A stretch of DNA of 64,000 nucleotides, taken from a phage. Each line of letters begins with the position of its first letter. Within the stretch, counting starts at the first letter, position 1. The translations under genes were made by a program, and so were the position numbers. Below, piece after piece: positions 1 to 64,000 of the stretch. The notes beneath the pieces are model-generated. The model had not been told where the DNA came from. It did not search any database and was given only the letters and a program-made list of their open reading frames with translations. The DNA is taken from the NCBI GenBank assembly GCA_019326865.1, contig GCA_019326865.1_4101.1; one strand, given 5' to 3'.

Positions 1-27
1 TTTTGTAATTTAAACAAAGGTGATTTA

Positions 28-303
28 ATGCACAGTGCGAATGAGTATATTCATTTTATGGATGGTAAATTCACATTCATTGATTACAGTTCATTACAAT
101 ATCCACATCAAGATATGCCGGACTATACAATAATGAATGAGGCTGAACTATTTCAAGCTTCATTAGTATTTGACAAGAAGTACATCTGTACATTTGAAGA
201 AGTAATTACTATACAAAATGAAATGAAGGAGTATGCATCTTTGAATAAACCCAATGAAGGTATTAATCAAGAATACAAATTCAATATAGAGATTCCAAAA
301 TGA
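28..303 (+). CDS. hypothetical small protein, FamA (acidic-aromatic FQ motif family)
   Basis: 91 aa ORF; C-terminal 'NEAELFQASLVFDKKYICTFEE' matches FamA motif. Confidence 0.55.
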   Translation: MHSANEYIHFMDGKFTFIDYSSLQYPHQDMPDYTIMNEAELFQASLVFDKKYICTFEEVITIQNEMKEYASLNKPNEGINQEYKFNIEIPK

Positions 304-659
304 CATATGATTATTCTATGTACTATTATAAGTTACCTAAAGGATGGGACTTGTGCTGTAATCTTATTAAGGGAGACTCGGAACATGAGTTGAATTTATA
401 TATGCACTACAAAGATTCTTGTTTTAAATTTATTCATGTATCACATGATGACTATGACTATGAATCTGAGAGTCTTATAGATTATACAGTACTGGACGAT
501 GGCGAACTATTTCAGGAAGCATTAGTGTTTGATAAGAATAAGTACTCCTGTACATTTGAAGAAATGGTTTCTTTGCAAACTGAAATGAAGAGATTTGAAA
601 AAGAAAACGTATTTAATCCATCCCCATCAAGAACGAATAATTATTATTTCAATATATGA
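300..659 (+). CDS. hypothetical protein, FamA
   Basis: 119 aa; 'LDDGELFQEALVFDKNKYSCTFEE'; ATGA overlap with upstream ORF. Confidence 0.6.
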   Translation: MTYDYSMYYYKLPKGWDLCCNLIKGDSEHELNLYMHYKDSCFKFIHVSHDDYDYESESLIDYTVLDDGELFQEALVFDKNKYSCTFEEMVSLQTEMKRFEKENVFNPSPSRTNNYYFNI

Positions 660-668
660 GATTATAAA

Positions 669-1151
669 ATGACATTACAGAGTTCATTGGAAAAAGCAAA
701 GAAGATTCATGAGTACATGAATATGGCAAAAGAAGGTTCAGTTTACGGTGTTTTCAAAGACACAAGTACTCAATATTATGTGCCGGATAACCTCCTTTAT
801 AATGACTACTCAGATACAGAAACGTGCGTACTGGATACCGACCCTAAAGATTATGAATGTTTCATTGATATGCATTATGAGTACATGGTCTATATTAATG
901 ATGCAGATATTACCATATACAGTACTGACTGCGATTCTGATGACATTATAATTCCTAGTGAAGTTCTGAATGGCCCGTGGGATAGTGAAGAGTATTACTT
1001 CCAACAAAGTACTGTATACAATGAAGAAGTACTTGATGTTATTATAATTATGTGGTACTTTAAAAATATTGGTTCTGATAACTTCTATTTCGATTACAGA
1101 TACGTAAAGAAAGCTATAGATAACGATATTAATAAACCACACGGGGGTTGA
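669..1151 (+). CDS. hypothetical protein, FamA
   Basis: 160 aa; N-term 'MTLQSSLEKAKKIHEY', C-term 'EEYYFQQSTVYNEEVLDVIIIMWYFK'. Confidence 0.7.
   Translation: MTLQSSLEKAKKIHEYMNMAKEGSVYGVFKDTSTQYYVPDNLLYNDYSDTETCVLDTDPKDYECFIDMHYEYMVYINDADITIYSTDCDSDDIIIPSEVLNGPWDSEEYYFQQSTVYNEEVLDVIIIMWYFKNIGSDNFYFDYRYVKKAIDNDINKPHGG
975..1071 (+). repeat. direct repeat copy A (FamA conserved C-terminal coding segment)
   Basis: about 90 percent identical to 2375-2471 by eye, including identical 26-mer 'ccgtgggatagtgaagagtattactt'. Confidence 0.7.
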
Positions 1152-1152
1152 A

Positions 1153-1623
1153 ATGAGTTTAGAAAGAGCATTAGAGATTGCGAAGTTAATTGATTTATGC
1201 AGCAAAGAAATTGTATCAAATTGTCTCAATGGATATCTATTCAAGGAAGGTAAATCATATTGTCGAATGAGATACGATGACAGTAGTGAGTATATTCACA
1301 TGTATGAAGAAGACCTTGATGATTCCGAAATAACACTGAATGGGTGTGATGTTAATCTGGAAGATAATTACATTTACTTCAGTCGTGGTGCTGATATTTT
1401 AATACAAGAAACATCAATTCAACATGTGAATCCAGATGTATATCTTCCATATTCAGTACTGGATAATGACTGGGGAAGTGAAGAGGTTTACTTTCAGCAT
1501 AATACTATCTACGATGAAGATGTGCTTGACAAGCTTGTCATTCTGTGGTACTTTAAGAACACTGATACTCCCAACTTCTATATGGATTTGGATCTACTAC
1601 GAGTTATAAAAGAGGATATATGA
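1153..1623 (+). CDS. hypothetical protein, FamA
   Basis: 156 aa; 'MSLERALEIAKLI' and 'EEVYFQHNTIYDEDVLDKLVILWYFK'. Confidence 0.7.
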   Translation: MSLERALEIAKLIDLCSKEIVSNCLNGYLFKEGKSYCRMRYDDSSEYIHMYEEDLDDSEITLNGCDVNLEDNYIYFSRGADILIQETSIQHVNPDVYLPYSVLDNDWGSEEVYFQHNTIYDEDVLDKLVILWYFKNTDTPNFYMDLDLLRVIKEDI

Positions 1624-2063
1624 GTTTAGCAAGTGCACTTAAACTGGCACACAAAATACATCACTTCCACGATAACATAAAAAGTGGGTTCAATGGTGAT
1701 AAAGTAAGTGCATTGGGTAATGAGTATTATCTATCAGGTATAAAGACATACTCTGATGATATTTTACTTATGGGACATGATAAAGACAATACTATACAGT
1801 ACTCTTCATGTAGTCAATATACTAGTTTTATGGTATATATTCCAGGTACTAAGATTACGTTTGACACATCAAATTCACCTGTTGACTTCGGGGTACTTGA
1901 TGGCCCGTGGGGTACTGAAGAGTATTACTTCCAACAGAGTCTTATTTTCAACCAAGAAATTCTTGATTCCTTGGTTGTTTTGTGGTACTTTAAGGAATTG
2001 AATTTTGAACCATTCTTTCTTGACTGGGGAGCATGTGAGTATTTAAGTACAGGGGATTTGTAA
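1620..2063 (+). CDS. hypothetical protein, FamA
   Basis: 147 aa; 'MSLASALKLAHKIH' and 'EEYYFQQSLIFNQEILDSLVVLWYFK'; ATGA overlap. Confidence 0.7.
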   Translation: MSLASALKLAHKIHHFHDNIKSGFNGDKVSALGNEYYLSGIKTYSDDILLMGHDKDNTIQYSSCSQYTSFMVYIPGTKITFDTSNSPVDFGVLDGPWGTEEYYFQQSLIFNQEILDSLVVLWYFKELNFEPFFLDWGACEYLSTGDL

Positions 2064-2551
2064 TGTCGTTACAAAGTGCATTAAAAGAAGCAAAGAAAAT
2101 CCATGAGTACATGATTATGGTACAAGAAGGTTCAGTCCCAGGTGTGTATAAAACATCTGATACTGAATTTTTTGTAAAAGACCGTGACGATTATGATGAG
2201 TCAGAGATATGTGCAGAAACGTTAGTACTGCACACTGATACTGGTGATAGTGATAACTGTGAATATCATATGTACAATCAATACATTAGTTATTGCCGTA
2301 ATGAAGATATTACCATCTACAACACAGATATTGATGCTGATGACACTATCATTCCGTATTCAGTACTGGAAGGTCCGTGGGATAGTGAAGAGTATTACTT
2401 TCAGAATAGTACTATCTACAATGAAGAAGAACTGGATGTTATTGTGATTATGTGGTACTTTAAAAGTATTGACTCCAGTAGTTTCTATTTTGATTATGAA
2501 TATGTAGAGAATACAGTAGGAGAAGGTAATGTCATTACAAAGTGCTCTTGA
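2063..2551 (+). CDS. hypothetical protein, FamA (close paralog of 669-1151)
   Basis: 162 aa; 'MSLQSALKEAKKIHEY', 'EEYYFQNSTIYNEEELDVIVIMWYFK'; about 90 percent nt identity to 975-1071. Confidence 0.7.
   Translation: MSLQSALKEAKKIHEYMIMVQEGSVPGVYKTSDTEFFVKDRDDYDESEICAETLVLHTDTGDSDNCEYHMYNQYISYCRNEDITIYNTDIDADDTIIPYSVLEGPWDSEEYYFQNSTIYNEEELDVIVIMWYFKSIDSSSFYFDYEYVENTVGEGNVITKCS
2375..2471 (+). repeat. direct repeat copy B
   Basis: paralogous to 975-1071; N-terminal segments 669-750 and 2063-2145 also similar. Confidence 0.7.
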
Positions 2552-2975
2552 AAAAGCAAAAGAACTACATGGATACTTTGAAGATATAAAGGCAGGAAAG
2601 TTCAAAGAAGTATACAAAGCCGAGAACGGTAACTACTACAAAGATGAAATATATAATAATTCCGTTGGTGTAAGGGTTATTCTTGGGTTGAATTCCAATA
2701 GTCCTGTGTCGTTTTCTGAATACAATAGAGATGCAGAATTCATTAGTTATGTTGAAAATGGTAGCATTCGTTTTATTAATAGACAAAAACCATTAATTTT
2801 GAATTATGAAGTTCTGGATGGTCAATGGGATAATGAAGAGTATTACTTCCAAAACAGTACTGTATACGACGATGAAGTACTTGAAGCATTAGTTATTATG
2901 TGGTACTTCAAGAGTATTAACTGTCCTCGATTTTATTTGGATTTCGAAGAACTTGGTAAAGATCCAGAGGTATAG
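2529..2975 (+). CDS. hypothetical protein, FamA
   Basis: 148 aa; 'MSLQSALEKAKELH', 'EEYYFQNSTVYDDEVLEALVIMWYFK'; GGAG RBS. Confidence 0.7.
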   Translation: MSLQSALEKAKELHGYFEDIKAGKFKEVYKAENGNYYKDEIYNNSVGVRVILGLNSNSPVSFSEYNRDAEFISYVENGSIRFINRQKPLILNYEVLDGQWDNEEYYFQNSTVYDDEVLEALVIMWYFKSINCPRFYLDFEELGKDPEV

Positions 2976-2976
2976 A

Positions 2977-3291
2977 ATGAAAAACTTATTCAGTGTTCAG
3001 TACGTTCCAGGTGAAATTAGTTTATTGTATCTCTTTGACCATGATAATTCATTATTACTAGTAGTAAAGAAATGTCAAGCTAGTTCGTTTGTTGAATACA
3101 TTCACGATAATGAATATATACCTGATTTTTTAGAGTGCGATTATTACGATGATCATGAATCATTTATTTTTCAGGAATCGCTAGTATGGGACAAATCGAT
3201 TAACTTCTTTACGTTAATTGAATTACAAAAGCAAGTGAAGTATCATTGGGATTATTTAATTACACAGGATTACATTGAGATAGAAATATAA
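2977..3291 (+). CDS. hypothetical protein, FamA-like
   Basis: ATG after GAGG (track ORF began at TTG 2953); 'HESFIFQESLVWDK'. Confidence 0.55.
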   Translation: MKNLFSVQYVPGEISLLYLFDHDNSLLLVVKKCQASSFVEYIHDNEYIPDFLECDYYDDHESFIFQESLVWDKSINFFTLIELQKQVKYHWDYLITQDYIEIEI

Positions 3292-3599
3292 TGACTAAAA
3301 ATGAATTTGATTCACTTTGTACTGTTTATAATTCATTAACAGAAATACCTAACTTTATTAGTTATATTTCAGCTTTAAATCACATTATGCATAGTTTTGA
3401 ACAATCGTTTGAGGAGAAATATGCTGGAAGAAAAGTTCTATGTCATATGCCAATGTACTTAGGAGATGGTGAGCCTTACACTACAAGTACTACATGTGAA
3501 ATAAAAAAATATAATATATTATTGGGTACTATAGAATTCACAGTATCCAATGGCGGTAGTTATATGTACTTTAGAGATGGAGTGGTTGAATTATTATGA
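3291..3599 (+). CDS. hypothetical protein
   Basis: 102 aa ORF, stop-start overlap with neighbours, no recognised motif. Confidence 0.45.
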   Translation: MTKNEFDSLCTVYNSLTEIPNFISYISALNHIMHSFEQSFEEKYAGRKVLCHMPMYLGDGEPYTTSTTCEIKKYNILLGTIEFTVSNGGSYMYFRDGVVELL

Positions 3600-4045
3600 G
3601 TTACGAAAGTGCAATCAAGAAAGCAAATGATATTCTACGCGTCGTTCAATTCTTCAAAGAAAATCCTGAATACGTAGATGATAAAAACCAAGAGCACGAT
3701 GAGAGATTGAGACGAAAAATTATCTCTTTATTTGACACTAATAAAGATAATTGGAGTCTAATTGAGTTAGCATACGATTATATTTCATTGAACCGAAATG
3801 ATGATGTAGTTAAGATAGAAAGGCATGAATCAGAAGAATCTTTTAAAATTTCAGATATTTTATCCCTGAGTACTGAAGAAGGGTACTTCCAGGGTAGCAC
3901 TCTTTATAATGAAGAAACACTTGACAATCTATGCACATTCAGTGTAATATATCAGAAATCTGTACTAGATATATTTTATCTTGACACTGCTGAACTGCAT
4001 ACCCTAACCAATTTTGTTACTACCGAAGAGGCTACATTCGAGTGA
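3596..4045 (+). CDS. hypothetical protein, FamA
   Basis: 149 aa; 'MSYESAIKKAN', 'EEGYFQGSTLYNEETLD'. Confidence 0.65.
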   Translation: MSYESAIKKANDILRVVQFFKENPEYVDDKNQEHDERLRRKIISLFDTNKDNWSLIELAYDYISLNRNDDVVKIERHESEESFKISDILSLSTEEGYFQGSTLYNEETLDNLCTFSVIYQKSVLDIFYLDTAELHTLTNFVTTEEATFE

Positions 4046-4578
4046 TGAAAGTTAACATTAATGACTTTGATGCATTACAAGATTTATCAAAAAAGATTCG
4101 CACCATCGTACCAGTACTTAAAAAATGCAGTACTGGTTTAATCGATCCTAGTTCTGTTGTCAATGAGAAGTACAATTTTCATCGTGTATTACAGGGGACA
4201 GGTGCATTTCAGAAGTGTGAGGTACGTGAGAAACATGTAATTGATACATCGTTGTTTTCTATTGGTGCACCTGTGTCAAACAATACTATTTTCCTGGATG
4301 CATCTGGAAATATTCAACAATTAACATTTAAGAAAAGGAAAAAGAATAATAACATTGGTGTGTACGCGATGAAGTGGGGACAGCCAGCGTTGATGCGTGA
4401 CATTCACATTCCTAAGTACAATTTCAATGCATTTGAAGAACAGTGTTTTCAACTTTCTTGTACTGACCCTGACTATGCTATCATTCAATTCTATATGGAA
4501 TTGCAGATTGCATTTAATAGTAATTTGTATATTAACTTATTGGCAATGAACATAGATGAAGTATTCAAAAACATTTAA
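4045..4578 (+). CDS. hypothetical protein, FamA-like
   Basis: ATG 4045 (track start 4042 is GTG); 'EEQCFQLSCTDPDY'. Confidence 0.55.
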   Translation: MKVNINDFDALQDLSKKIRTIVPVLKKCSTGLIDPSSVVNEKYNFHRVLQGTGAFQKCEVREKHVIDTSLFSIGAPVSNNTIFLDASGNIQQLTFKKRKKNNNIGVYAMKWGQPALMRDIHIPKYNFNAFEEQCFQLSCTDPDYAIIQFYMELQIAFNSNLYINLLAMNIDEVFKNI

Positions 4579-4774
4579 TCGAATTGAATACATGAGAACT
4601 GTGAGAGCGGTGTGGAATATATGGTACACTACTAAACCAAAAATGGATTACCATGATTTTAAGCTCTTGTTCTTTGTTGGCTCTAACAAACAGGATGTTG
4701 CAATGAAGGGTTATATTCAGCACTTACAGGAACTAATCCAGAAGAGAATATATGAAAATAATAGACCAAAATGA
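4556..4774 (+). CDS. hypothetical small protein
   Basis: 72 aa ORF, weak RBS, start uncertain (alt ATG 4592). Confidence 0.35.
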   Translation: MKYSKTFNRIEYMRTVRAVWNIWYTTKPKMDYHDFKLLFFVGSNKQDVAMKGYIQHLQELIQKRIYENNRPK

Positions 4775-4943
4775 CATTGCTAAACTATTCAATATATATT
4801 CTACTAGAATGATGCAAACAGATTCATATAGTACTAAATTCAAAGAGTTGAAAGTACTGATGTACTTGGGAACACAATATCAGGAACAAGTTATTTTAGA
4901 ATATATTAATTCATTAAAGAAGGATATCCGTGATGTACGATGA
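4752..4943 (+). CDS. hypothetical small protein
   Basis: 63 aa ORF in co-directional gene train. Confidence 0.35.
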   Translation: MKIIDQNDIAKLFNIYSTRMMQTDSYSTKFKELKVLMYLGTQYQEQVILEYINSLKKDIRDVR

Positions 4944-5493
4944 TTTAGATCTTGCGTTTGAACGCATGAAAATTTTAATGCAATGCAATGAAATGCATGA
5001 GACAATCCGTCGCACCAAAGGGATTGAATATACAAGTAAACTATTCTCATACGAAAGTCGTCGAGGGATGGATCATTTTTACTGCACTGATTGTTCAAAG
5101 TTTTCAGTACTGAAATATTATCATCCTACTGTTTCCAATAATAGTTTAATATCCACATATGACGGTGATCTGTTTAGTGTAATGTATGACACATTACATC
5201 CATCAATTTCAATATATAAAGATTGCGATAGTAGTCTATCGTATATAATTGAAGATTACTTATCTCCTAATACTGAAGAGAATATATTTCAAAACAGTGT
5301 ATTGCATGATGAATTAAGTATAAAATGCATCTATATGTTCAATAAGTTAAAAGAATACGTTGATAATAATTACTTAATTGATGAGTTAGCTGTGTTTTCG
5401 GTTTCAGTTTTCAATACAAATGATGTTGATATGAAATACTATAATGAAATTTGTAAAGTACATAACATGTATAAGGAACTCTTATGCTACTAA
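4930..5493 (+). CDS. hypothetical protein, FamA-like
   Basis: 187 aa; 'TEENIFQNSVLHDE'. Confidence 0.55.
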   Translation: MMYDDLDLAFERMKILMQCNEMHETIRRTKGIEYTSKLFSYESRRGMDHFYCTDCSKFSVLKYYHPTVSNNSLISTYDGDLFSVMYDTLHPSISIYKDCDSSLSYIIEDYLSPNTEENIFQNSVLHDELSIKCIYMFNKLKEYVDNNYLIDELAVFSVSVFNTNDVDMKYYNEICKVHNMYKELLCY

Positions 5494-6086
5494 ATGCCAA
5501 TAAATGTTGTAGTGCAGATGTGCATTTGTTTTTTAAGAAATTGGCAAATGATATTATATATATGCAGGAAATGATTTACCACAAACGAACAGATTTAGAA
5601 AAAGCATTAGTACAGTTCTCCTTTATGCTTGATGGTGATATATTTCTACATGGTGATACATTGCGAACAGTACTGGACGGAAATTCAAATAGAAGTTTCA
5701 TTTGTACAAATAATAAATTTTCTTCCACGATGTGCCGTACTTTTTATAATCCTGATTCGGACTTATATCAAGTGTCGTATTCTAAAGGTGCAGTTGAATC
5801 ATCATATTGTGATAGTTCAGCTTTAGGTAAAAGTCGTCCATATATGCAATCATTTGAAATTGAACTCATCAGTACTGATGAAGATGCAATGTTCACAAAT
5901 GATATAACGATGGATCGTGAATCTGCAATGATATATATTACAAATTCTATGCATACATTCTTTCAACGATTAGAATTTGATAATGTATATATATCAAATG
6001 TAAATATTTTCAATGATCTGTGTCAGTACTTGAAAAGTGTTTGTGATTTTGATGAAAGCTATTGTAAGCTTTATACTGAGGTATAA
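5484..6086 (+). CDS. hypothetical protein
   Basis: 200 aa ORF, weak FamA resemblance. Confidence 0.5.
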   Translation: MLLNANKCCSADVHLFFKKLANDIIYMQEMIYHKRTDLEKALVQFSFMLDGDIFLHGDTLRTVLDGNSNRSFICTNNKFSSTMCRTFYNPDSDLYQVSYSKGAVESSYCDSSALGKSRPYMQSFEIELISTDEDAMFTNDITMDRESAMIYITNSMHTFFQRLEFDNVYISNVNIFNDLCQYLKSVCDFDESYCKLYTEV

Positions 6087-6091
6087 AACAA

Positions 6092-6454
6092 ATGAACACA
6101 TTAAGTATTACATACTATACAACTAAAAAATTAGTTACTTGTTTAATATCATTGAAGTCAAAAAATGATGATATGTTTGATATGGCTGCATATGAATTAG
6201 AATTATCAGAAGATGGTTTCAAGATCTATGAAGTATATAGCTATGTTCGTGAAGATGTAATTGACACTACACTAATGCAAGAGGATGAGTTATTCCAAGA
6301 AAGTTTAGTATGGGATAATAAGTACGATTGTAACTTTGATTTCTTATGTTTAATCCAAAAAGAAATGAAAAGAATCTTTGATAATTATCCAATCAAACGT
6401 TTCAGTACTGCACCTGAGCAATATAAAAGGATTATATTCACCTATGAAGATTGA
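6092..6454 (+). CDS. hypothetical protein, FamA
   Basis: 120 aa; 'QEDELFQESLVWDNKYDCNFD'. Confidence 0.6.
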   Translation: MNTLSITYYTTKKLVTCLISLKSKNDDMFDMAAYELELSEDGFKIYEVYSYVREDVIDTTLMQEDELFQESLVWDNKYDCNFDFLCLIQKEMKRIFDNYPIKRFSTAPEQYKRIIFTYED

Positions 6455-6821
6455 ATTTGAAGTTATTACATATAGTATAGGTGATGGTATCCGTTGCTAC
6501 GTACAAGCAAGGCATATTGTTCCTGATGATAAACTGTCACCCAAAAGTTTCCTTATTACACAAGAACTCTTAGATATTAACAGAGAGAACAAGTATACAT
6601 ATTATCTCACTAAGGGTTATTGTGGTTCGCGTGGTTTTAATATTGTAGCTGTTTCTAGAGATGAAATTGATGATTTAACTGAGTACGGTGAAGAAGAGAT
6701 GTTCCAGTACAGTACTGTTTTTAATGATCTGGATGTGTTTCTGTTACGAAAAATACAACACATTATGCAAGAATGTTTGCATCATAAGAGAGGTATTGTA
6801 TGCGACGTGAAATTGAATTAG
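6444..6821 (+). CDS. hypothetical protein, FamA
   Basis: internal ATG 6444 chosen over overlapping 6378; 'GEEEMFQYSTVFNDLD'. Confidence 0.55.
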   Translation: MKIEFEVITYSIGDGIRCYVQARHIVPDDKLSPKSFLITQELLDINRENKYTYYLTKGYCGSRGFNIVAVSRDEIDDLTEYGEEEMFQYSTVFNDLDVFLLRKIQHIMQECLHHKRGIVCDVKLN

Positions 6822-7141
6822 TTAAAGTAATGTACGCTACTCATATTAAACTACTACTTGTGAAATTTGATTATAATAAAAAACATAATGATTTCTATAC
6901 GTTGATTCGTGATGAAAATTCATTCTCCTTGCGATGCAACAATATACAGTGGACGATAAATGATTTTTCTTCACTTGACGAAGGTGAATTATTTCAAGAA
7001 TCATTAGTTCTTAATAGTAATATAAAAATTGATATAGAAGCTATTAAAAAATACCAGATTTTATTAAACAAAATTATGAATTGTTATCCATGTGAAATAG
7101 GCGGTAATATGCAGTTCAAATCAAAAATGTATGAATTATGA
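6800..7141 (+). CDS. hypothetical protein, FamA
   Basis: 113 aa; 'DEGELFQESLVLN'. Confidence 0.55.
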   Translation: MRREIELVKVMYATHIKLLLVKFDYNKKHNDFYTLIRDENSFSLRCNNIQWTINDFSSLDEGELFQESLVLNSNIKIDIEAIKKYQILLNKIMNCYPCEIGGNMQFKSKMYEL

Positions 7142-7148
7142 GGTTTAT

Positions 7149-7685
7149 ATGTTAGATGAAAAAATGAACGCTGGAACTCAATATAATCATCTTAAGTTGG
7201 ATACATTTGAATCAGCTATCAGTACTGCACAAGATATTATCGATATTATTAAGTACATTAAAGAAAATAAGTTAAAATGTGTGAAAACACCCGAACGTAC
7301 AATGTATAAAGATGACTGTATTCACGTATCTGTTGTTAATCCAAAAGATAAGGATGGTAATAGAGATTTCTATAATAACAGTGAGCAGTTCGAATGTGAA
7401 TATGATCCAGAATTCAGAGGCGGTTTCATGTGTTACAGTATGAAGGATACCTCACACATTGAGATACGTTCATCTAAAGGTGGCATACGTACATTAGAGT
7501 TCATTGATATAGTTTTAAATCAGGAATACTACTTTCAACTATCATTATTGTTTCCTGCATACGATTTAGGAGTTCTATTCATGTATAAGTACTTTTATGA
7601 GCACTTGAATGAAGACTTCTATCTGGACTTAGAAGATTACCAATTAGTTTGGGAAGAAATGGTAGAACTTCGCAACCACCCTTGA
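7149..7685 (+). CDS. hypothetical protein, FamA
   Basis: ATG 7149 after GAGG; 'NQEYYFQLSLLF...FYLDLEDY'. Confidence 0.6.
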   Translation: MLDEKMNAGTQYNHLKLDTFESAISTAQDIIDIIKYIKENKLKCVKTPERTMYKDDCIHVSVVNPKDKDGNRDFYNNSEQFECEYDPEFRGGFMCYSMKDTSHIEIRSSKGGIRTLEFIDIVLNQEYYFQLSLLFPAYDLGVLFMYKYFYEHLNEDFYLDLEDYQLVWEEMVELRNHP

Positions 7686-7711
7686 CACCCACCGATTCTT
7701 TGTGATATAAT
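7682..7711 (+). promoter_or_regulatory. sigma70-like promoter (TTGACA-18-TGATATAAT)
   Basis: -35 TTGACA 7682-7687; extended -10 TGATATAAT 7703-7711; 33 nt upstream of CDS 7745. Confidence 0.6.
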
Positions 7712-7744
7712 CCCTTTATATTAATTTTAAAGGGTTATAACACA

Positions 7745-8221
7745 ATGTCAAACGAACTCACATTCACCAATGCACAAAAGATAGCAAAAGACATTATCAG
7801 GGTTTATAAATTCCTTGCGAATGTTACTGAAGATTTTTTAATTGATAAAAATAAAGTTATTAAGCGAAATGGATACCTTTCCTTTATGGATGGGTTGCTC
7901 TATAGTTCAGATGAGTCAGCTTGTAGTATTAGAGTACTTGATACTGTACCAAGTGGTGATTTTATTTCATACCATTTTCCAAGTTCAGATAAGTTCAAAT
8001 ACTACAATAGTATTCTCATAGCAGAAGACTTTGATACGATTGTAATTAACACTGAAGAAGAGTTCTTCCAGTACAGTACTGTGTACCCAGAGAGGATTGT
8101 TTTCAGTTCAGTGATTTACACTACCCTTAAAAATGAACTAAATTCCGATAGTGATCATTTCTACTTGGACCTGAATAATATCGATTGTATTATTGAGTAC
8201 ATGGAGAAAAATGGTTTATGA
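7745..8221 (+). CDS. hypothetical protein, FamA
   Basis: 158 aa; 'EEEFFQYSTVYPE...HFYLDL'; sigma70-like promoter at 7682-7711. Confidence 0.7.
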   Translation: MSNELTFTNAQKIAKDIIRVYKFLANVTEDFLIDKNKVIKRNGYLSFMDGLLYSSDESACSIRVLDTVPSGDFISYHFPSSDKFKYYNSILIAEDFDTIVINTEEEFFQYSTVYPERIVFSSVIYTTLKNELNSDSDHFYLDLNNIDCIIEYMEKNGL

Positions 8222-8721
8222 TTACTACAGAATATGATTACAATAGTGTCCTTGAATTTGCAGAAAATATATATCGTATTGCAAAGGAGTTCAGAAGTCC
8301 TGAGCCGTTTGGTGGTATGTTCGAATACGATGAGTTTAGTTCATCAAAAGGAAGACTTGCATTTACTAATGGTAGAGGTAATCAAATCTACACAGAGTAC
8401 TTTGATGACAATGACTTTCATCACAAAGCCGAATACATTTCATATTGCCCTGGGTCTGATTTGAAGATTCATATTGAAAGAGATATAGAAAATGTATTTG
8501 TTCCATATACTGATTTAGTCTTCATGTCAGAGGAAATGTACTTTCAGGAATCATTGATTCATGATACAAAAGTACTTAATACTATATTATTATATGGTAC
8601 ACTACTTAATCATTACAAATACAATCAAAGATTCTTTTTAGATTTAGTAGTATACCATCAATGTGTGGATTATTTGAATGCAAAATCAGACAACAATTCA
8701 GTACATGACCGATGGTTCTGA
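8218..8721 (+). CDS. hypothetical protein, FamA
   Basis: 167 aa; 'SEEMYFQESLIHD...RFFLDL'; ATGA overlap. Confidence 0.65.
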   Translation: MITTEYDYNSVLEFAENIYRIAKEFRSPEPFGGMFEYDEFSSSKGRLAFTNGRGNQIYTEYFDDNDFHHKAEYISYCPGSDLKIHIERDIENVFVPYTDLVFMSEEMYFQESLIHDTKVLNTILLYGTLLNHYKYNQRFFLDLVVYHQCVDYLNAKSDNNSVHDRWF

Positions 8722-9040
8722 ATACTTTGTTTCAAGATATGTAATAAATCACAACCATTATGTAACCTATATTCCAGAGTACAATCAATTTTATATCCAG
8801 ATTTATCAACATAATGGAAAGAGAAATGATATATATTCAGAAATAAAAATCCCTGATTATAGTTCTTTATCAGAAGAGGAATTGTTTCAGGAGAGCACTA
8901 TCAGTACTGAAGATGTGTACGAAATAATGGAGTACCAGAAGGTACTTAAACATTTTCATGAAACAAATGATATACAAATAGATATTGTTAAACCGTGGTG
9001 TTACAATACATATGAGGTAAATTATGTTAGAAATGATTAA
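8678..9040 (+). CDS. hypothetical protein, FamA
   Basis: 120 aa; 'SEEELFQESTIS'; start uncertain (alt ATG 8705). Confidence 0.5.
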   Translation: MQNQTTIQYMTDGSEYFVSRYVINHNHYVTYIPEYNQFYIQIYQHNGKRNDIYSEIKIPDYSSLSEEELFQESTISTEDVYEIMEYQKVLKHFHETNDIQIDIVKPWCYNTYEVNYVRND

Positions 9041-11516: not shown

Positions 11517-11540
11517 AGACCCGTTATGGGTCTTTTTGTG
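11516..11540 (+). terminator. rho-independent terminator
   Basis: GACCC-GTTAT-GGGTC hairpin then TTTTTGTGTTT. Confidence 0.7.
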
Positions 11541-11548
11541 TTTATGGC

Positions 11549-11577
11549 TTTACAAGAGCATTCAGGTGTGTTATACT
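11549..11577 (+). promoter_or_regulatory. T4-early-like promoter (TTTACA-17-TGTTATACT)
   Basis: between terminator 11516-11540 and CDS 11593. Confidence 0.45.
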
Positions 11578-11592
11578 TGATTTCAAATAGAG

Positions 11593-14816: not shown

Positions 14817-14820
14817 ATTT

Positions 14821-14848
14821 ATACCAGGGGTTGACTCTGGTATTTTTG
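14821..14848 (+). terminator. rho-independent terminator
   Basis: ATACCAG...CTGGTAT stem, 9-nt loop, TTTT. Confidence 0.55.
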
Positions 14849-14877
14849 TATGATACATTATCCTAAAGGAGAATTTT

Positions 14878-53937: not shown

Positions 53938-55377
53938 ATGAAAAAATATACAATTGACACAAACGTACTACTATCTGATCCAAATGCGTCTGTTGCTTTT
54001 GATGGTGCTGCAATCATTCTACCATTTACAGTACTGGAAGAATTGGATTCGATTAAGAGTCGCAATGTTGATGTTTCACGTGATGCTCGTGTTGCGATTC
54101 GTAACATTGAAGCAATTATTGCAGAGGCATCACATAATGAGATTAGTTGTACTGGTGTTAATATTGCTGATGTTCATACCAATATGAATCCTGATAGCAA
54201 ATTGTTTGTTATTACAACCGAAGAAGCTGAGGCACTAATTCGTACTAAAGGTTCAGACGAGAAAGTTCAAACCCTTCTTAAAAGTACTGTACCTGATGAT
54301 AAAATTATTCTGGTTGCTTTAGCAACCGAATCAGTACTGGTAACTCGTGATATCAACATGCGTATCAAAGCACTAAGTTATGGTGTCGAGGTACAAGACT
54401 ATCGTCATGATATTGTTATTGGTGATAGTGATTTGATGCACATTGGTCAACATCATTTGGAACTCAATTTTTGGGATGTATATAGCAATTTAGCAAATAC
54501 AAATATTAAAACTGAACAAATTGGTCGTCGATTGTATCATTACATTCCTAAAAGCTTGATTGGTCATTTACTTCCACAAAATCTATGCATTGGTGATTAT
54601 CTATATGATGATGCTGATGTATTATTTGTATATGAAGGCCAATCAGCCATTGAGGAAGATGATGGCACACTAACACCAGAAGATATTTTGGTATTCCAAG
54701 ACATTGGTCAATCTGTAGCTTTGCGTGCTAAAGTATGGGATATTAAAGCAAAGAATATTCAACAAGCACTTGCAATCAACAGTATTCTCGATCCTGATGT
54801 ACACCTAACAGTGCTGCTAGGTTCTGCTGGAACTGGCAAAACATTAATTACGATTGCTACTGCACTAGAGTTAGTACTGGAAAAACGCAAATACGACCGT
54901 ATTATCTTCTCTAAAACACAAGATTCACAGTTTGAAGATATAGGATTCTTGCCAGGTTCTGAGACAGAGAAAGTTATCCCATTCTGTGGACCTGCAATTG
55001 ATGCTCTTGAGTATCTTCATAAAGATGATGTATCACCACAAGGTAGCATCGAAGAGATTCTCAAACGTAACGTGATGCAATTTAAAGCATTGAACTTTAT
55101 TCGTGGTCGTTCTTTTGCCAATACAATTCTAATTGTGGATGAAGCACAGAACTTAACACCAGCCCAGTTAAAAACTGTCTTGACAAGAGCCGGAGAAAAC
55201 TGTAAAGTAATCATACTTGGTAACCTAGCACAGATTGATAACAAGTTTATCAGTCCAGTAAACAGTGGTTTGACATATGTAACTGAAAAATTCAAGGATT
55301 GGAGTGGTTGTCGTATCATTGAATTAGAAGGTGTTGTTCGTTCACCACTTGCTGAATTTGCTGAAGAAAATATGTAA
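53938..55377 (+). CDS. phoH: PhoH-like ATPase with N-terminal PIN domain
   Basis: PIN 'YTIDTNVLLSDP'; Walker A 'GSAGTGKT'; Walker B 'LIVDEAQN'. Confidence 0.85.
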   Translation: MKKYTIDTNVLLSDPNASVAFDGAAIILPFTVLEELDSIKSRNVDVSRDARVAIRNIEAIIAEASHNEISCTGVNIADVHTNMNPDSKLFVITTEEAEALIRTKGSDEKVQTLLKSTVPDDKIILVALATESVLVTRDINMRIKALSYGVEVQDYRHDIVIGDSDLMHIGQHHLELNFWDVYSNLANTNIKTEQIGRRLYHYIPKSLIGHLLPQNLCIGDYLYDDADVLFVYEGQSAIEEDDGTLTPEDILVFQDIGQSVALRAKVWDIKAKNIQQALAINSILDPDVHLTVLLGSAGTGKTLITIATALELVLEKRKYDRIIFSKTQDSQFEDIGFLPGSETEKVIPFCGPAIDALEYLHKDDVSPQGSIEEILKRNVMQFKALNFIRGRSFANTILIVDEAQNLTPAQLKTVLTRAGENCKVIILGNLAQIDNKFISPVNSGLTYVTEKFKDWSGCRIIELEGVVRSPLAEFAEENM

Positions 55378-55860: not shown

Positions 55861-56418
55861 ATGTTTTTTGACCAAACATTTACGTTGTATCACGATTCTG
55901 GTAAAGTTGAGATTATTGATAATCTGCTACTGTACATTTCTGAGCATGAAGGGATAGACCGTTTTCATAGTAAGATGAAATTCGATTTAGCTGAATTCAA
56001 CAAAAAGAATCGTGAAACTTTTTGGAAGAACCGATTCTATTATGAAATGTTCCCAGAAAGGTTTGTTGGTTATTATCTTTGTACTGAGAAAGGTTTATTA
56101 GTATCTCCAGATTTACTTATGGGTGAATACATGGTTCTCTATAATGAGTACTGGAAAAATAAACGTAACGCTCGTGACATTGAATGGAGACACAAGCGTT
56201 CGTACATGTACAAACACAACCACTCCCGATACAAACGTCCTAAGACTCAACAAGAGCGTCGTATGGCGTGTGCGGTATTGAAGGATGAGGGGGAACCTGA
56301 TATACGTGGTAAGCGTAAAATGCGTTCAATACCTTCATACTGGGATGATATCAGAACAAGACACAGTACTGGCTGGAAATACAGTACTAAGCGTAAAAAA
56401 CAATACAAAGGGAGCTAA
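55861..56418 (+). CDS. hypothetical protein with basic C-terminus
   Basis: 185 aa; AGGAG RBS; terminator overlaps stop. Confidence 0.55.
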   Translation: MFFDQTFTLYHDSGKVEIIDNLLLYISEHEGIDRFHSKMKFDLAEFNKKNRETFWKNRFYYEMFPERFVGYYLCTEKGLLVSPDLLMGEYMVLYNEYWKNKRNARDIEWRHKRSYMYKHNHSRYKRPKTQQERRMACAVLKDEGEPDIRGKRKMRSIPSYWDDIRTRHSTGWKYSTKRKKQYKGS

Positions 56419-57622: not shown

Positions 57623-58594
57623 ATGAAAACTAAAATTATTTCTGAACAAAAAATCGGCAATACTACAGTACTGAATCTTGAAGTTCAAGATCTTAGTAAT
57701 GTTCGTTCTCTTACTGTTTGTACTCAGAGAGATGATTTGACTGATTTTTATAACTCCGAATACATGTCAGAAGAACATTGGGATATGGGATGGTTAGACG
57801 GTAGTAGTTATATCAGTTCTCGTTATAGTTTTGGTTCTCATGAAAATATTGAACAAGTAAAAAATGAGTATATTAAACTCAGTGATACTATTGAAATGAA
57901 AGAAGAAGATTGTGTAGAACTTTTCATTTTTGAATTCGATGCAGGAAATGGTAATTCATTACTAGTAAGTAATATTGAAGAACATTTAATGTATCATGAT
58001 ATTGAAGATGTAGATTTTAAAAGTATTAAAAATGTTGTTCATATGGTTGGTGGTAGTATTACTGATGATTCAGATATCGGTCATAATATTTCACTGTGCT
58101 TAATTTCTCATCCAAAAACTCGTGGTTTTAAAGTTCCACAAGATGAAACTTACGTGTTTGAAACTGCTGATGAAGGAATTTATCCTTGGAATGATTATGT
58201 AGAATACTATGGTCATTTCTGTTCTGATATAAAAGAACTGAAAAAAGGCGAACGATATTTTGATATGTTCCGTGCTGCACAGCGTTTAGTACTGAATAAT
58301 ACTGAACTATTTCCTGAACGCGGTGAAGAAAATATGATTGATATTATCTTCAAGAACTATGATTATGTGCAGAACATTCCTGATAATGTACATTTGGAAT
58401 ATGTTCACGGTTCTTCAAACAAATTCTATAATATTGAATTGAATGCTCCAGTGTGTGAAGTAATCATTGAGTACGGTGCTATTGGTAAAACCAGTACTAC
58501 CGATGGTGAAGAATTCGAAACTATTGAAGAAGCACGTAAGTTCTTCGAGAAGAAAGTAATTTCCAAAATTAAAAGTGGTTATATCCCAAAATGA
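57623..58594 (+). CDS. protein with C-terminal WGR-like domain
   Basis: 'SSNKFYNIELNAPVCEVIIEYGAIGKTSTTDGEEFETIEEARKFFEKKVISKIKSGY' fits WGR pattern. Confidence 0.5.
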   Translation: MKTKIISEQKIGNTTVLNLEVQDLSNVRSLTVCTQRDDLTDFYNSEYMSEEHWDMGWLDGSSYISSRYSFGSHENIEQVKNEYIKLSDTIEMKEEDCVELFIFEFDAGNGNSLLVSNIEEHLMYHDIEDVDFKSIKNVVHMVGGSITDDSDIGHNISLCLISHPKTRGFKVPQDETYVFETADEGIYPWNDYVEYYGHFCSDIKELKKGERYFDMFRAAQRLVLNNTELFPERGEENMIDIIFKNYDYVQNIPDNVHLEYVHGSSNKFYNIELNAPVCEVIIEYGAIGKTSTTDGEEFETIEEARKFFEKKVISKIKSGYIPK

Positions 58595-59364: not shown

Positions 59365-59393
59365 CAGTACTGTCATAGTGGCAGTACTTTTTA
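59365..59393 (+). terminator. rho-independent terminator built on AGTACT motif
   Basis: AGTACTG-TCATAGTGG-CAGTACT then TTTT. Confidence 0.6.
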
Positions 59394-60386: not shown

Positions 60387-60607
60387 AGAAAATCGAACGC
60401 CACAAAAACCATACAGTTGTGGCTGAAGATGATATATTTTATTATTATATTTTCAGACCCACACACTGTTTACAAATAACGACATTTGAGAATGATAATT
60501 TCAAAGATGTCAACTTCCATATAACAGATTTAGCTAAATATTCCAGTACTGAACACTTTAGTAATCTAGTATTTGTGTACTGTATTCCAAACTCAAATAA
60601 TAAGTAG
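60383..60607 (+). CDS. hypothetical small protein
   Basis: ATGA-coupled start at 60383; 74 aa. Confidence 0.4.
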   Translation: MKKIERHKNHTVVAEDDIFYYYIFRPTHCLQITTFENDNFKDVNFHITDLAKYSSTEHFSNLVFVYCIPNSNNK

Positions 60608-61792: not shown

Positions 61793-61896
61793 ACTTGTCA
61801 TAGGGTGTAGTGCAATTGCTGCATATATGATTTTTTCACCTCCAACCAATGTATTACTGCTAATTTGGGCGGTTGTTATATTAGCAGTACTTTAAA

Positions 61897-61918
61897 AGCA
61901 CCTTAGTGGTGCTTTTTA
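61897..61918 (+). terminator. rho-independent terminator
   Basis: AGCACC-TTAGT-GGTGCT then TTTT. Confidence 0.6.
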
Positions 61919-61951
61919 TATTTGTGCAAATAAAAACCAATGTGACTTTTC

Positions 61952-61994
61952 CTTGATATATATCAAGAGAAATAGCCTGTTCTGACGCTATAAT
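61952..61994 (+). promoter_or_regulatory. 16-bp palindrome CTTGATATATATCAAG plus TATAAT upstream of nrdD
   Basis: perfect palindrome 61952-61967; TATAAT 61989-61994. Confidence 0.35.
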
Positions 61995-62055
61995 ATTGTC
62001 TGGTGATATTAAATATCTTCACCCCCAGATGATTTCAAAATACAAGGAATGTACA

Positions 62056-63861
62056 ATGCAGCTAGATAAATTATATAATGACGTAACGAATTTCCTAAAT
62101 CAGAGTAATACAGATCTCACAAATGAAAATGCGAACAAAGATGCGAAGTGCGTCAATACACACAGGGATTTACTTGCAGGTATCCTATCTAAACATTATT
62201 CACAAGATGTTATCCCAAATGAACTAATGCAGTGGCATAATGATGGTTATGGACATATTCATGATTTAGACTACTATATCAGTCCATTAACCAACTGTTG
62301 CTTAGTCAACTACCCAGATATGCTAAAAAATGGATTTACTATTGGCTGTGCTAAAATTGAAGAACCAAAAAGTTTTAGTGTTGCATGTACAGTACTAACA
62401 CAGATTGTACAAGCTGTAGCTAGTTCACAATACGGAGGTCAATCGTTGGCTCACATTGATGTCGGGTTGGAACCTTACGTTAAAAAGTCATGGTATAAAC
62501 TATTAGAAAAACAAAAGAAATATAATCTAAGTGATGAATACATTGAAGAAGAATTACGAAAAGAAGTATACGATGGATGTCAAACATTACTTTATCAAAC
62601 TAATTCAATGATTAGTACTAATGGTCAAGCTGCATTTATTTCTCTTAGTTTAGGTTTGAATACTTCCAAATTTGGTAAATTAATCACCGAACAGTACTTA
62701 AAAGTTCATGAGAATGGTTTAGGTAAAGATAAGATTACTCCAGTGTTTCCTAAAGTTATTTTCTTTTTACAAGATGGTATAAACATGAATACCAATGATT
62801 GTAATTATGACCTTAAACAGTTAGCTATGCGTTGTGCATCAAAGCGAATCTACCCAGACTTTGTTTCAGTTCCATTAAATCACAAAGTGACGGGAAGTAG
62901 TAGTACTGCGGTAACACCAATGGGTTGTCGTTCATTCTTAGGAAAATGGGAAGATTCAAATGGAAATGAACAATATAACGGTCGCTTCAATTTAGGTGTA
63001 GTTTCTATCAATTTACCACTAATTGCTCTTGAAAGTGCTACAGATGGAGAGTTTTTTGATAAGATAGATGAGCATATGAATATTGCATATCGTGCTCAGA
63101 TGAACCGCGTAGAGCGTTTAAAAGGTACAAAAGCGAAACAGAATCCAATTTTGTTTATGGAAGGTGCATTAGCACGTTTAGATGCAGAAGAAACTATTGA
63201 CAAGCTATTTTACAATGGTTATGCTAGTATTAGTATTGGTTATGTTGGACTTGTTGAATGTTCGGAAATCCTCACTGGTTCTATCAGTAAGGAGTTTTGT
63301 ATGTCAGTACTGAATTATATGAAAGTAAAATGCGATGAGTTTAAAAAAGAAAGTAATATTGCTTTTAGTTTATATGGAACTCCAGCAGAGTCACTTTGTT
63401 ATAAATTTGCACGTTGCATTGAAGCAAAGTATCCGTCTGTTCTAAAACGTAATTATATTACAAATTCATTCCATCAACCAGTATGGGTTGAAAGTTCTGC
63501 TTTTGAAAAGTGGGATTATGAGGAAAACTTTGCTTATCTAAGCAATGGTGGTAATATTAGCTATGTCGAAACACCAAACTTAACAAACAACATTCAAGCA
63601 CTTGAAACATTAATCAATTATGCCTATAAAAAAATTCCATATTTTGGAATAAACCAGCCTATAGATCATTGTCATAAATGTAATTTTGAAGGTGAATTCA
63701 GCGTCGATAAAAACGGTTTCCACTGTCCAGTTTGTAATAATAGAGATGAAAAATCTATGTCAGTTATTCGAAGAGTTAGCGGATATCTTAGTGCACCAAA
63801 TAGTCGCCCATTCAATAAAGGAAAGCAAGATGAAGTGATTCAGAGAATTCGCCATTTATAA
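62056..63861 (+). CDS. nrdD: anaerobic ribonucleoside-triphosphate reductase
   Basis: ATG 62056 after AAGGA; 'DLTNENANKD...RDLLAGILSKH' parallels T4 NrdD; glycyl-radical 'RRVSGYL'; C-terminal 'CHKC...CPVC'; uninterrupted. Confidence 0.9.
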   Translation: MQLDKLYNDVTNFLNQSNTDLTNENANKDAKCVNTHRDLLAGILSKHYSQDVIPNELMQWHNDGYGHIHDLDYYISPLTNCCLVNYPDMLKNGFTIGCAKIEEPKSFSVACTVLTQIVQAVASSQYGGQSLAHIDVGLEPYVKKSWYKLLEKQKKYNLSDEYIEEELRKEVYDGCQTLLYQTNSMISTNGQAAFISLSLGLNTSKFGKLITEQYLKVHENGLGKDKITPVFPKVIFFLQDGINMNTNDCNYDLKQLAMRCASKRIYPDFVSVPLNHKVTGSSSTAVTPMGCRSFLGKWEDSNGNEQYNGRFNLGVVSINLPLIALESATDGEFFDKIDEHMNIAYRAQMNRVERLKGTKAKQNPILFMEGALARLDAEETIDKLFYNGYASISIGYVGLVECSEILTGSISKEFCMSVLNYMKVKCDEFKKESNIAFSLYGTPAESLCYKFARCIEAKYPSVLKRNYITNSFHQPVWVESSAFEKWDYEENFAYLSNGGNISYVETPNLTNNIQALETLINYAYKKIPYFGINQPIDHCHKCNFEGEFSVDKNGFHCPVCNNRDEKSMSVIRRVSGYLSAPNSRPFNKGKQDEVIQRIRHL

Positions 63862-64000
63862 TATAGTATAACATGATTACCTCGATTTAACATAAATATT
63901 TAAAATTAAATCGAGTAAACTAATTATGAAATGAAAAATGAACAAAGAATCTAATTTTTTGTTCATTTGTTTATGAAATATCGTTTGATGATAGAATATT

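Follow-up and report, generated by a model that had tools for sequence, protein, structure and literature searches.

AGTACT, a palindromic DNA word kept by selection throughout a clade of RaK2-like jumbo phages

The window, by which we mean the whole stretch of 64,000 nucleotides analysed here (phage contig GCA_019326865.1_4101.1 of GenBank assembly GCA_019326865.1), is filled with copies of the palindrome AGTACT, often extended to the octamer CAGTACTG. It has 95.7% identity with Escherichia phage UE-S1 and about 90% with PBECO4-, G17- and phAPEC6-type phages. Judged by these identities, its phage is an Asteriusvirus, i.e. a RaK2-like jumbo coliphage. The closest complete genome is that of UE-S1, of which 349,778 unique bases were used in the genome-wide counts. 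Simple longest-frame calling gives 122 non-overlapping open reading frames (ORFs) in the window. Expected counts are throughout based on order-1 Markov models or on shuffles.

Exact search finds 43 copies of CAGTACTG in the window, compared with 0.90 ± 0.95 in dinucleotide-preserving shuffles (shuffle maximum 4). An earlier reading of the same DNA, made from the letters only and called here the sequence-only reading, had estimated about 40 copies with fewer than one expected; the ten example positions which it gave are all found by exact search. The AGTACT core is present 165 times, with 17.1 ± 3.9 expected from shuffles. The counting of words against a Markov or shuffle expectation, which that reading had proposed as a check, gives GTAC, AGTAC, AGTACT, CAGTACT and CAGTACTG as the most over-represented words for k = 4 to 8: the motif is the top word at each length. 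In a maximal-order Markov model 77.6 octamers are expected and 86 are observed (both strands). The octamer is thus accounted for by its own 7-mers, which indicates a graded signal around GTAC/AGTACT and no sharply bounded 8-mer. The cores are evenly spaced, about one per 383 bp (coefficient of variation of the gaps 0.81); their counts per gene are under-dispersed and no position within genes is favoured. Their flanks are symmetric, with 10 copies of TTCAGTACTG and 8 of CAGTACTGAA. CGTACG and GGTACC have no copy in the window. The positions are listed below as obtained by exact search; no strand is assigned to the motif.

1..64000: AGTACT core, 165 dispersed copies, in three frames and between genes
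28..18887, + strand: FamA array, 25 divergent paralogous ORFs with a conserved EE..FQ.ST; 59 of the 165 AGTACT sites
487..494: octamer CAGTACTG
920..927: octamer
1454..1461: octamer
2361..2368: octamer
2855..2862: octamer, AGTACT being the FQxST Ser-Thr codons of a FamA paralog
4128..4135: octamer
5105..5112: octamer
5668..5675: octamer
5870..5877: octamer
6403..6410: octamer
6710..6717: octamer, AGTACT being the FQxST Ser-Thr codons of a FamA paralog
7220..7227: octamer
8074..8081: octamer, AGTACT being the FQxST Ser-Thr codons of a FamA paralog
8902..8909: octamer
11994..12001: octamer
14062..14069: octamer
15576..15583: octamer
19107..19114: octamer
20904..20911: octamer
21472..21479: octamer
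22162..22169: octamer
23727..23734: octamer, within the PF05869 methyltransferase gene
24744..24751: octamer
25096..25103: octamer
25467..25474: octamer
26350..26357: octamer
28129..28136: octamer
35468..35475: octamer
39638..39645: octamer
40525..40532: octamer
41253..41260: octamer, within the DNA ligase gene
41961..41968: octamer, within the DNA ligase gene
42496..42503: octamer
43756..43763: octamer
45889..45896: octamer
50559..50566: octamer
54029..54036: octamer, within the PhoH-like gene
54332..54339: octamer, within the PhoH-like gene
56364..56371: octamer
57666..57673: octamer, within the WGR-domain gene
59365..59372: octamer, the 5' arm of a terminator hairpin
60544..60551: octamer
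63305..63312: octamer, within the NrdD gene

The FamA ORFs have 91–193 amino acids and form a single, highly divergent family with no Pfam match. The sequence-only reading had noticed the motif in at least two reading frames; in genes of the + strand it actually occurs in all three (69, 34 and 48 copies of AGTACT; 3, 19 and 18 octamers). It could be a by-product of codon usage, of dipeptide content or of the FamA peptide motif: AGT, ACT and GTA are common codons and FamA has a conserved Ser-Thr. We consider the probability of this explanation negligible. When synonymous codons are shuffled within each gene, with protein and codon usage kept, 42.0 ± 5.9 AGTACT are obtained, against 155 observed in genes (z = 19), and 3.0 ± 1.7 octamers, against 40 (z = 22). 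Shuffling the order of codons gives 25.5 AGTACT and 0.9 octamers; for both nulls together z = 19–41. In UE-S1 the motif spelling is used for 45% of Ser-Thr (AGT-ACT), 33% of x-Val-Leu (nnA-GTA-CTn) and 30% of x-Tyr-x (nAG-TAC-Tnn), where codon usage predicts 14%, 8.5% and 5%. The density of AGTACT per 10 kb is 21.7 in non-coding and 17.0 in coding DNA. The conserved Ser-Thr of FamA is spelled AGTACT in five members only, which corresponds to 5 of the 165 sites; 106 sites lie outside the array, and the excess is present in unrelated genes over 350 kb. An artefact of codons, dipeptides or FamA is ruled out by the shuffles, the use of synonymous opportunities, the non-coding density and the FamA count. 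The sequence-only reading had named two outcomes that would speak against it, namely that codon usage or the FamA peptide suffices and that the enrichment is bound to the array: the nulls (z = 19–22) and the FamA counts contradict both.

Phage genomes are known to avoid palindromes. This contrast was already pointed out in the sequence-only reading, and it is stronger than stated there. In UE-S1 21 of the 64 hexamer palindromes are missing (CTGCAG, CAGCTG, GCATGC, GGATCC, GAGCTC and others), as is CGATCG; GCGC has no copy with 174 expected, and GATC, GGCC and CCGG are found at about half of expectation. AGTACT is the only strongly enriched palindrome of this genome, with 727 copies against 90 expected (8×); the runner-up is GTGCAC (1.5×). 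GTAC itself has 2129 copies against 1067. AT-rich palindromes such as GAATTC and GATATC are at their expected frequency. Therefore the tolerance of AGTACT needs no special explanation, but its eight-fold excess does. The idea that tolerance implies protection by methylation is rejected, because purging is limited to GC-rich palindromes. In short, GC-rich palindromes are purged to zero in this clade, while a single palindrome takes up between a third and a half of all synonymous opportunities.

The motif is present in all parts of the UE-S1 genome. Its density per 10 kb is 8–16 in the replication module, 9–16 in the structural and late module (still 4–5× chance), 19–29 in accessory regions, which include the window, and 52–61 in a hot zone at 110–140 kb. 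Synonymous opportunities are used for the motif in 58–67% of cases in the hot zone and in 13–42% in replication and late genes. One gene of the window had been thought to be depleted:

47152..49824, - strand: Ig-like structural gene, 4 AGTACT and no octamer

The counts given for it were right. The depletion itself does not hold, as 6.9 copies are expected at the density of the window (P(≤4) = 0.18). The gene is still about 5× above chance and has a density as in late and structural genes. As a separate observation on word usage, the E. coli Chi sequence GCTGGTGG is found in UE-S1 15 times on the + strand and 8 times on the - strand; a rough expectation based on composition is about one per strand.

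Related phages were sampled over some 41 kb surrounding the DNA ligase gene, in steps of decreasing ligase identity from 98% to 61%. The observed and expected numbers of AGTACT are:

Window segment: 98 and 11.3
EC22.5-2: 126 and 11.0
121Q: 129 and 11.2
EJP2: 178 and 14.5
Salmonella phage Munch: 113 and 11.6
TH47: 108 and 10.5
Pectobacterium phage CBB (Mimasvirus): 153 and 10.7
KP13-7: 120 and 9.3
RaK2 (structural region): 77 and 10.8

All sampled genera of the RaK2-like jumbo phages that infect Enterobacterales show the excess. It is 8–14× for the hexamer and 35–60× for the octamer; the range in Alcyoneusvirus, Mimasvirus and the Salmonella relatives is 7–14×. The core is constant, while the preferred flanks drift: C..G in Asteriusvirus and Alcyoneusvirus, A..T in Munch and CBB. 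Two exact-pattern scans of IMG/VR gave about 220 loci of at least 3 kb, all selected for containing the word. Those with an observed/expected ratio (O/E) ≥ 9 all come from contigs of 345–390 kb, from fragments of a few kb or from one 38 kb contig; the large contigs are RaK2, GAP32-sized, CBB, BF, fHe-Yen9-04, 121Q and uncultured ones. The other loci have a median O/E of 1.5 despite the selection for the word. Host and outgroup samples were small, 20–50 kb each. No excess is seen in a T-even-like coliphage contig (1 against 4.7), in a sample of the more distant Pseudomonas jumbo phage PA5oct (3 against 14.3) or in 50 kb of E. coli K-12 (3 against 4.8). AGTACT is thus about 35× denser in the phage, with one copy per 480 bp (about 700 copies), than in the small host sample, with one per 17 kb. 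The motif is not mentioned in full-text literature searches nor in the genome papers on Sharanji, phAPEC6, CBB, fEgEco12 and UE-S1, and we have found no earlier report of AGTACT enrichment.

The sites are also conserved individually. In relatives with about 91% identity 92–93% of the window hexamers are intact, compared with 61–63% of phase-matched control hexamers; the values are 72% and 46% at 85% identity, 44–57% and 16–18% at about 71%. A stricter control takes the codons ACT, GTA, TAC and AGT and compares their third positions within motif copies with those elsewhere. Unchanged third positions amount to 95.3% inside and 84.8% outside in EC22.5-2 (p 8e-4), 97.6% and 82.8% in 121Q (p 1.5e-6), 90.5% and 74.9% in TH47 (p 2.7e-4): synonymous change is 3–7× rarer inside the motif. 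The motif copies are under purifying selection on the DNA sequence itself. Its upkeep has persisted while the proteins of the clade diverged to about 60% identity, which implies a strong sequence-encoded function. The functional DNA-level signal suspected in the sequence-only reading is borne out by the three frames, the non-coding copies, the codon-aware nulls, the selection at synonymous sites and the conservation in the clade. A region of the window apart is 28272–32378, where variants of motif sites are common with the divergent TH47 and not with UE-S1, the closest relative; this suggests a mosaic recombination tract.

Enrichment depends on the flanks in a multiplicative way. In UE-S1 AGTACT with neither C at -1 nor G at +1 is found 218 times against 56 expected (3.9×), with one good flank 341 against 30 (11×), with both flanks, i.e. 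CAGTACTG, 168 against 3.9 (43×), and TCAGTACTGA outside the hot zone 30 against 0.38 (about 79×). Conservation follows the same order: compared with TH47 it is 0.50 with no good flank (control 0.46), 0.77 with one and 0.86 with both (Fisher p = 0.012). The flanks of 502 intragenic sites outside the UE-S1 hot zone are A-rich at -9..-7 and T-rich at -4..-2, followed by C-AGTACT-G, A-rich at +2..+4 and T-rich at +7..+9, a mirror-symmetric pattern (p between 1e-4 and 5e-7) which coding bias cannot yield, given that nearly all genes share one strand. Both of its arms are seen again in Alcyoneusvirus, Mimasvirus, Munch and EJP2: T at -3 has a frequency of 0.46–0.48 in three of these four lineages (0.35 in Mimasvirus CBB) and A at -9 of 0.40–0.46 in three of them (0.37 in EJP2). 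The extended consensus is aaa..TTC-AGTACT-GAA..ttt. The weak symmetric pattern reaches about 12 bp to either side of the dyad, or 9 bp beyond each end of the hexamer, and suggests a footprint of about 24 bp. Graded enrichment, graded conservation and symmetric flanks together indicate selection on affinity for a two-fold symmetric protein and not an all-or-none enzyme site.

A neutral drive of mutation or repair, by very-short-patch-type mismatch correction or biased gene conversion, might regenerate the word with no function behind it. In bacteria short palindromes become over-represented through drives of this kind, as for Vsr and CCWGG, and a strong drive can imitate site conservation. We regard it as highly unlikely here. 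None of the nine classes of one-mismatch neighbours is depleted, for which reason a Vsr-like drive was rejected; AGTATT/AATACT have an O/E of 1.25 (order-1) or 0.97 (order-2). Conservation depends on the flank class, and the flank preference varies by genus with a constant core. Furthermore, when counted over the same alignment, the lineage of the window and UE-S1 is poorer by about 25 sites than its sisters 121Q and EC22.5-2, whereas a drive should keep equilibrium.

In the hot zone the motif has a different setting. The UE-S1 hot zone consists of tiny ORFs which are parted by near-identical σ70-type promoters with the motif in fixed register. In the promoter aaaaAGTACTtgcaattagttttcAGTACTgtataatg one copy adjoins the -35 element and another one adjoins the -10 element twenty bp downstream; in a variant the spacing is 22 bp, and frequently a third copy is present some 24 bp upstream of the pair. 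The contexts are strongly oriented: AGTACTTGCA is found 19 times on the + strand and 2 on the -, AGTACTGTATAAT 13 times and once, with pair spacings of 20–24 bp. KP13-7 (Klebsiella, Alcyoneusvirus) has a hot zone with 240 AGTACT and 97 octamers in 50 kb, where 12 and 0.4 are expected; its promoter module TTGACA-N11-C[AGTACT]GTATAAT occurs 12 times on the + strand and once on the other. In RaK2 there are ten motif-promoter modules within 11 kb. The register relative to -10 and -35 is seen for about 60 early hot-zone copies in UE-S1, KP13-7 and RaK2, and not for the dispersed copies; promoter contexts cover only about 60 of the 727 copies of UE-S1. The window has a single full + strand copy of such a module:

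13613..13625, + strand: promoter-type module AGTACTGTATAAT, motif adjoining a -10 hexamer

It is intragenic and has no good -35 upstream: it is probably not a promoter here, although it marks early promoters in relatives. Nearly all of the 165 window copies are of the dispersed kind. Outside the hot zone dispersed copies have no meaningful association with start codons (maximum ratio 1.6) and none with -10-like hexamers at a fixed offset, so they are not internal promoters, a role which we have rejected on these grounds. When pair distances are pooled in UE-S1, only the promoter spacing of 20–22 bp stands out and there is no helical periodicity. Inside the early hot zone we have also observed an unannotated non-coding stretch of about 1.6 kb, at 117990–119670 in UE-S1 and with a counterpart in KP13-7 (segment coordinates 21080–22640). 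These stretches have 17–19 motif copies and other repeats, and that of KP13-7 has several Fur-box-like gataatgataatcatt. They could be a regulatory hub, a locus for non-coding RNA or an origin.

Two copies of the window are found in a structure of another type:

59366..59393, + strand: intrinsic-terminator-like hairpin, AGTACTGTCA-tag-TGGCAGTACT followed by TTTTT; the hairpin proper is 59366–59388

It lies directly 3' of the stop codon of the ORF 59002–59361. Its energy is -13.5 kcal/mol (z = -2.7), and the 10-bp stem has at its base the two motif copies, which lie 17 bp from each other. The proposal that the motif provides a terminator stem at 59365–59393 is plausible; this role fits one pair of copies and is irrelevant to the other 163. 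More generally, the word could act in transcripts at CAGUACUG, as a signal for cleavage, binding or structure. Almost all genes are on one strand and most copies are transcribed, as this explanation demands, and two of them do form the stem just described. It is nevertheless extremely improbable: the word and its extended flanks are mirror-symmetric, which is not required of RNA, the promoter copies lie upstream of transcription starts, and close pairs capable of forming hairpins are not in excess (19 gaps below 60 bp in the window against about 24 expected), so that a hairpin-pair role was rejected. No Rfam family has a match in the window.

We tentatively interpret (C)AGTACT(G) as an operator-like site for a putative dimeric DNA-binding protein, which would mark the phage chromosome and touch early promoters; we give this interpretation a little less than an even chance. 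Among the candidates proposed in the sequence-only reading, a protein-binding site fits best; the indirect evidence obtained here gives no support to a recombination hotspot or to a cue for packaging or replication. The reader would be an abundant, clade-specific and probably phage-encoded protein which binds as a dimer. Centred near -16.5 or -37.5 of early promoters, the dimer would occlude or remodel the contacts of RNA polymerase and so switch early transcription. Through the roughly 700 dispersed copies this protein would also be loaded over the full length of the phage chromosome, which would be marked or organised apart from host DNA.

Several points weigh against this interpretation. 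A scan of the 71 uncharacterised window proteins with Pfam and PHROG gave no Pfam domain for sequence-specific DNA binding. No homologue of SlmA, HU, IHF, TF1, Fis, H-NS, Cro or MotA was found with query sequences which, SlmA aside, were entered by hand. The FamA family has no recognisable fold: its AlphaFold model (pLDDT, predicted local distance difference test, 79; pTM, predicted template modelling score, 0.75) has no significant neighbour in PDB. The dispersed copies have no link to gene starts or -10 hexamers and their benefit is inferred only; neighbouring ones show no helical phasing, so that nothing points to cooperative arrays beyond the promoters. Since the promoter cassettes of the hot zone are clearly paralogous, common descent may account for some of their fixed register. 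Finally, a methyltransferase or a type II topoisomerase would likewise be a two-fold symmetric reader. The search for HU/IHF-type genes detected none apart from a weak IHF-alpha-like stretch (E = 4e-4, 38% identity over 50 amino acids, in the beta-arm region), at 302268–302405 on the minus strand of UE-S1, within the gene for the baseplate hub / tail lysozyme.

Modification of the DNA has to be considered next to protein binding. The window contains a candidate modifier of the motif:

23686..24207, + strand: gene for a PF05869 'Dam' N6-adenine methyltransferase (Pfam)

The word could be the target of a phage DNA methyltransferase or of another base modification, the (hemi)methylated state being used throughout the genome for strand or age discrimination, sequestration or promoter timing. 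The methylase could be the reader itself, so that this explanation is compatible with an operator-like site; we consider it unlikely, yet it is the foremost of the alternatives. Palindromes of 6–8 bp are typical enzyme sites, and a density-dependent 6-mer mark would need enrichment to about one per 500 bp. The genome has a C5-cytosine methylase besides the PF05869 enzyme, and the specificity of these enzymes is not readable from sequence. There is also a precedent in cyanobacteria, where the abundance of the palindrome HIP1 (highly iterated palindrome 1) has been linked to orphan methyltransferases (PMC4390886). A type II methyltransferase or restriction site would be a sharp, flank-independent word; what we find is enrichment which multiplies with flank quality, symmetric preferences out to about 12 bp from the dyad, and bare AGTACT kept no better than control hexamers. 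With AT-rich palindromes at expectation, AGTACT needs no special protection. At polymorphic sites the variants (AGTTCT, AGTGCT, AGCACT, AATACT, AGTATT) are simply compatible with the protein, without a base-specific signature of decay; a modified-base signature was rejected for this reason. For the PF05869 enzyme identity is 67% with KP13-7 and 41.5% with a clade member from Erwinia, no nearer than the 40–43% of homologues from outside the clade: the enzyme is widespread and not specially conserved within the clade, so co-variation with the motif was also rejected. The link to this Dam-like enzyme suggested in the sequence-only reading is not supported, given the graded enrichment, the bare hexamers at control conservation and an identity down to 41% in the clade. 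Virion DNA of fEgEco12 is cut as predicted by ten ordinary restriction enzymes, none with a GTAC-containing site, which indicates that there is no global hypermodification (PMC13070987). The C5-cytosine methyltransferase of UE-S1 (UES1_076, 626 amino acids, segment coordinates 728–2605, outside the window) is interrupted by an intein with Hint and LAGLIDADG homing-endonuclease domains.

The symmetry of the site would also suit the phage's own type II topoisomerase, or another two-fold symmetric enzyme, for which it would be a preferred place of binding or of cleavage, staggered around the central GTAC; the sites would ease decatenation or relaxation of a 350 kb genome. The dyad, the central 4 bp and the weak symmetric AT pattern of about 24 bp agree with it, and topoisomerase II subunits are encoded by the phage. 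An AT pattern of this length resembles the bent G-segment footprint of type II topoisomerases. The known site preferences of these enzymes are weak, though, and enrichment of such sites is not known from any genome; the idea would leave the fixed register at early promoters unexplained and there is no direct evidence. We find this explanation very unlikely.

The operator-like reading has a bolder form, which we call 'phage chromatin' and consider quite unlikely: a clade-specific reader, bound about every 500 bp on phage DNA and hardly on host DNA, would act throughout the cell as well as time early promoters. Cells infected by Sharanji grow into filaments in which phage DNA is spread everywhere, and no known division inhibitor was identified (PMC11895373); this filamentation may or may not be connected with the motif. 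The reader could, for example, be a DNA-activated antagonist of host division, comparable with SlmA on its SlmA-binding sequence (SBS), which would give filamentation without a known inhibitor. Alternatively it could shield AT-rich phage DNA from host silencing or nucleases. If true, 'phage chromatin' would be the first case described of a virus genome with a self-marking sequence code.

Two other features of the window were noted. A second local family, found as a blastp cluster, is formed by four small paralogous ORFs of 91–103 amino acids at 25947–27356; four of the scanned window proteins match phrog_21004, a PHROG without assigned function, and they are probably these ORFs. An RNA-repair neighbourhood, with the RnlA ligase and a polynucleotide kinase/phosphatase, is found at 57623–58591 and at about 33738–34667. 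Alongside there are proteins with WGR and cREC_REC domains; the latter is a 'cyclic-phosphate processing receiver' domain, matched in the batch scan of window proteins.

The phages of this clade have 350 kb genomes in which more than 80% of the genes are without known function, and they are promoted for therapy. The motif provides a one-line diagnostic for the clade in metagenomes and predicts about 700 ScaI sites per genome.

We may now compare the motif with known systems. T4-type phages have hyperplastic regions made of promoter-early/stem-loop cassettes, which are similar to the hot zone of tiny early ORFs, each with a near-identical σ70-type promoter. They differ in that the promoters described here carry a palindrome at -10 and -35, a word which is also dispersed throughout the genome. 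Chi, KOPS (FtsK-orienting polar sequences) and DNA uptake sequences are 8–12-mers which are also strongly over-represented in coding DNA and selected for a DNA-processing protein. However they are asymmetric and strand-skewed, whereas the phage word is a perfect palindrome with symmetric flanks and therefore carries no directional information. TF1 of phage SPO1 is an abundant, phage-encoded DNA-binding protein of the HU family: its preferred sites overlap early promoters and are also found elsewhere on the genome, and it has been proposed to shut off early transcription. It recognises DNA with hydroxymethyluracil and flexible sequences. The presence of sites at early promoters and along the genome is common to both systems; the phage word differs by being a sharp palindrome.

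The SBS of E. coli, GTGAGTACTCAC, has the same central hexamer (PMC3020112). Like the phage word it is a palindrome centred on AGTACT with many sites in the chromosome outside promoters; it is read by a dimeric helix-turn-helix protein, and the SlmA-DNA complex blocks FtsZ. Thus the phage might hijack this nucleoid-occlusion factor of the host: SlmA-like sites on phage DNA would activate SlmA throughout the cell and block division. Phages of this genus do cause filamentation, as seen for Sharanji with its DNA filling the cell and no known division inhibitor (PMC11895373), and the motif clade infects Enterobacterales, with no motif in the Pseudomonas relative PA5oct. This hijack is most improbable when the flanks are compared. 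SlmA requires G1, T2 and a purine at position 3 (PMC3020112); it reads the outer positions G1, T2, A4 and G5 and tolerates changes in the centre, whereas the phage word has an invariant centre, C at position 3 and the consensus T-T-C. A strict SBS, with G1, T2, purine 3, A4 and G5 in each half of the 12-bp palindrome, has 0 matches. Sites with at most one mismatch in the outer positions are 2 of 727, 1 of 360, 0, 0 and 0 in five genomes, and GTR half-flanks are below 1%. With incompatible flanks and no SlmA homologue found in the clade phages, SlmA sites were rejected.

The closest likeness is with HIP1 (GCGATCGC), a palindromic octamer of cyanobacteria which is 15–300× over-represented and conserved by selection, with no role at the level of peptide, RNA or gene (PMC5861425). 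The phage octamer has an excess of about 43×, it is equally found in all frames and between genes, and its dispersed copies also have no peptide, RNA or per-gene regulatory role. In both cases the sites are conserved between genomes beyond control words, which indicates selection and not neutral replenishment. The phage word thus has the features of a HIP-type element: an octamer at least about 15-fold in excess genome-wide, present in all frames and intergenic DNA, and conserved. Word and host are different, an AT-rich AGTACT core in a virus clade in place of a bacterial phylum, and CGATCG is missing from UE-S1, so that we are dealing with an analogue of HIP1 and not with HIP1 proper. A link to methyltransferases is known for HIP1, whereas for the phage word, in spite of two methyltransferase genes, the indirect evidence is unfavourable; graded enrichment, a footprint of about 24 bp and a fixed register in early promoters belong to the phage word. 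The decades-old puzzle of HIP1 has thereby a viral counterpart, with a small genome, a culturable E. coli host and a read-out at early promoters. AGTACT is a clade-wide DNA word kept by selection; as a viral analogue of HIP1 it has in addition a conserved connection with early promoters.

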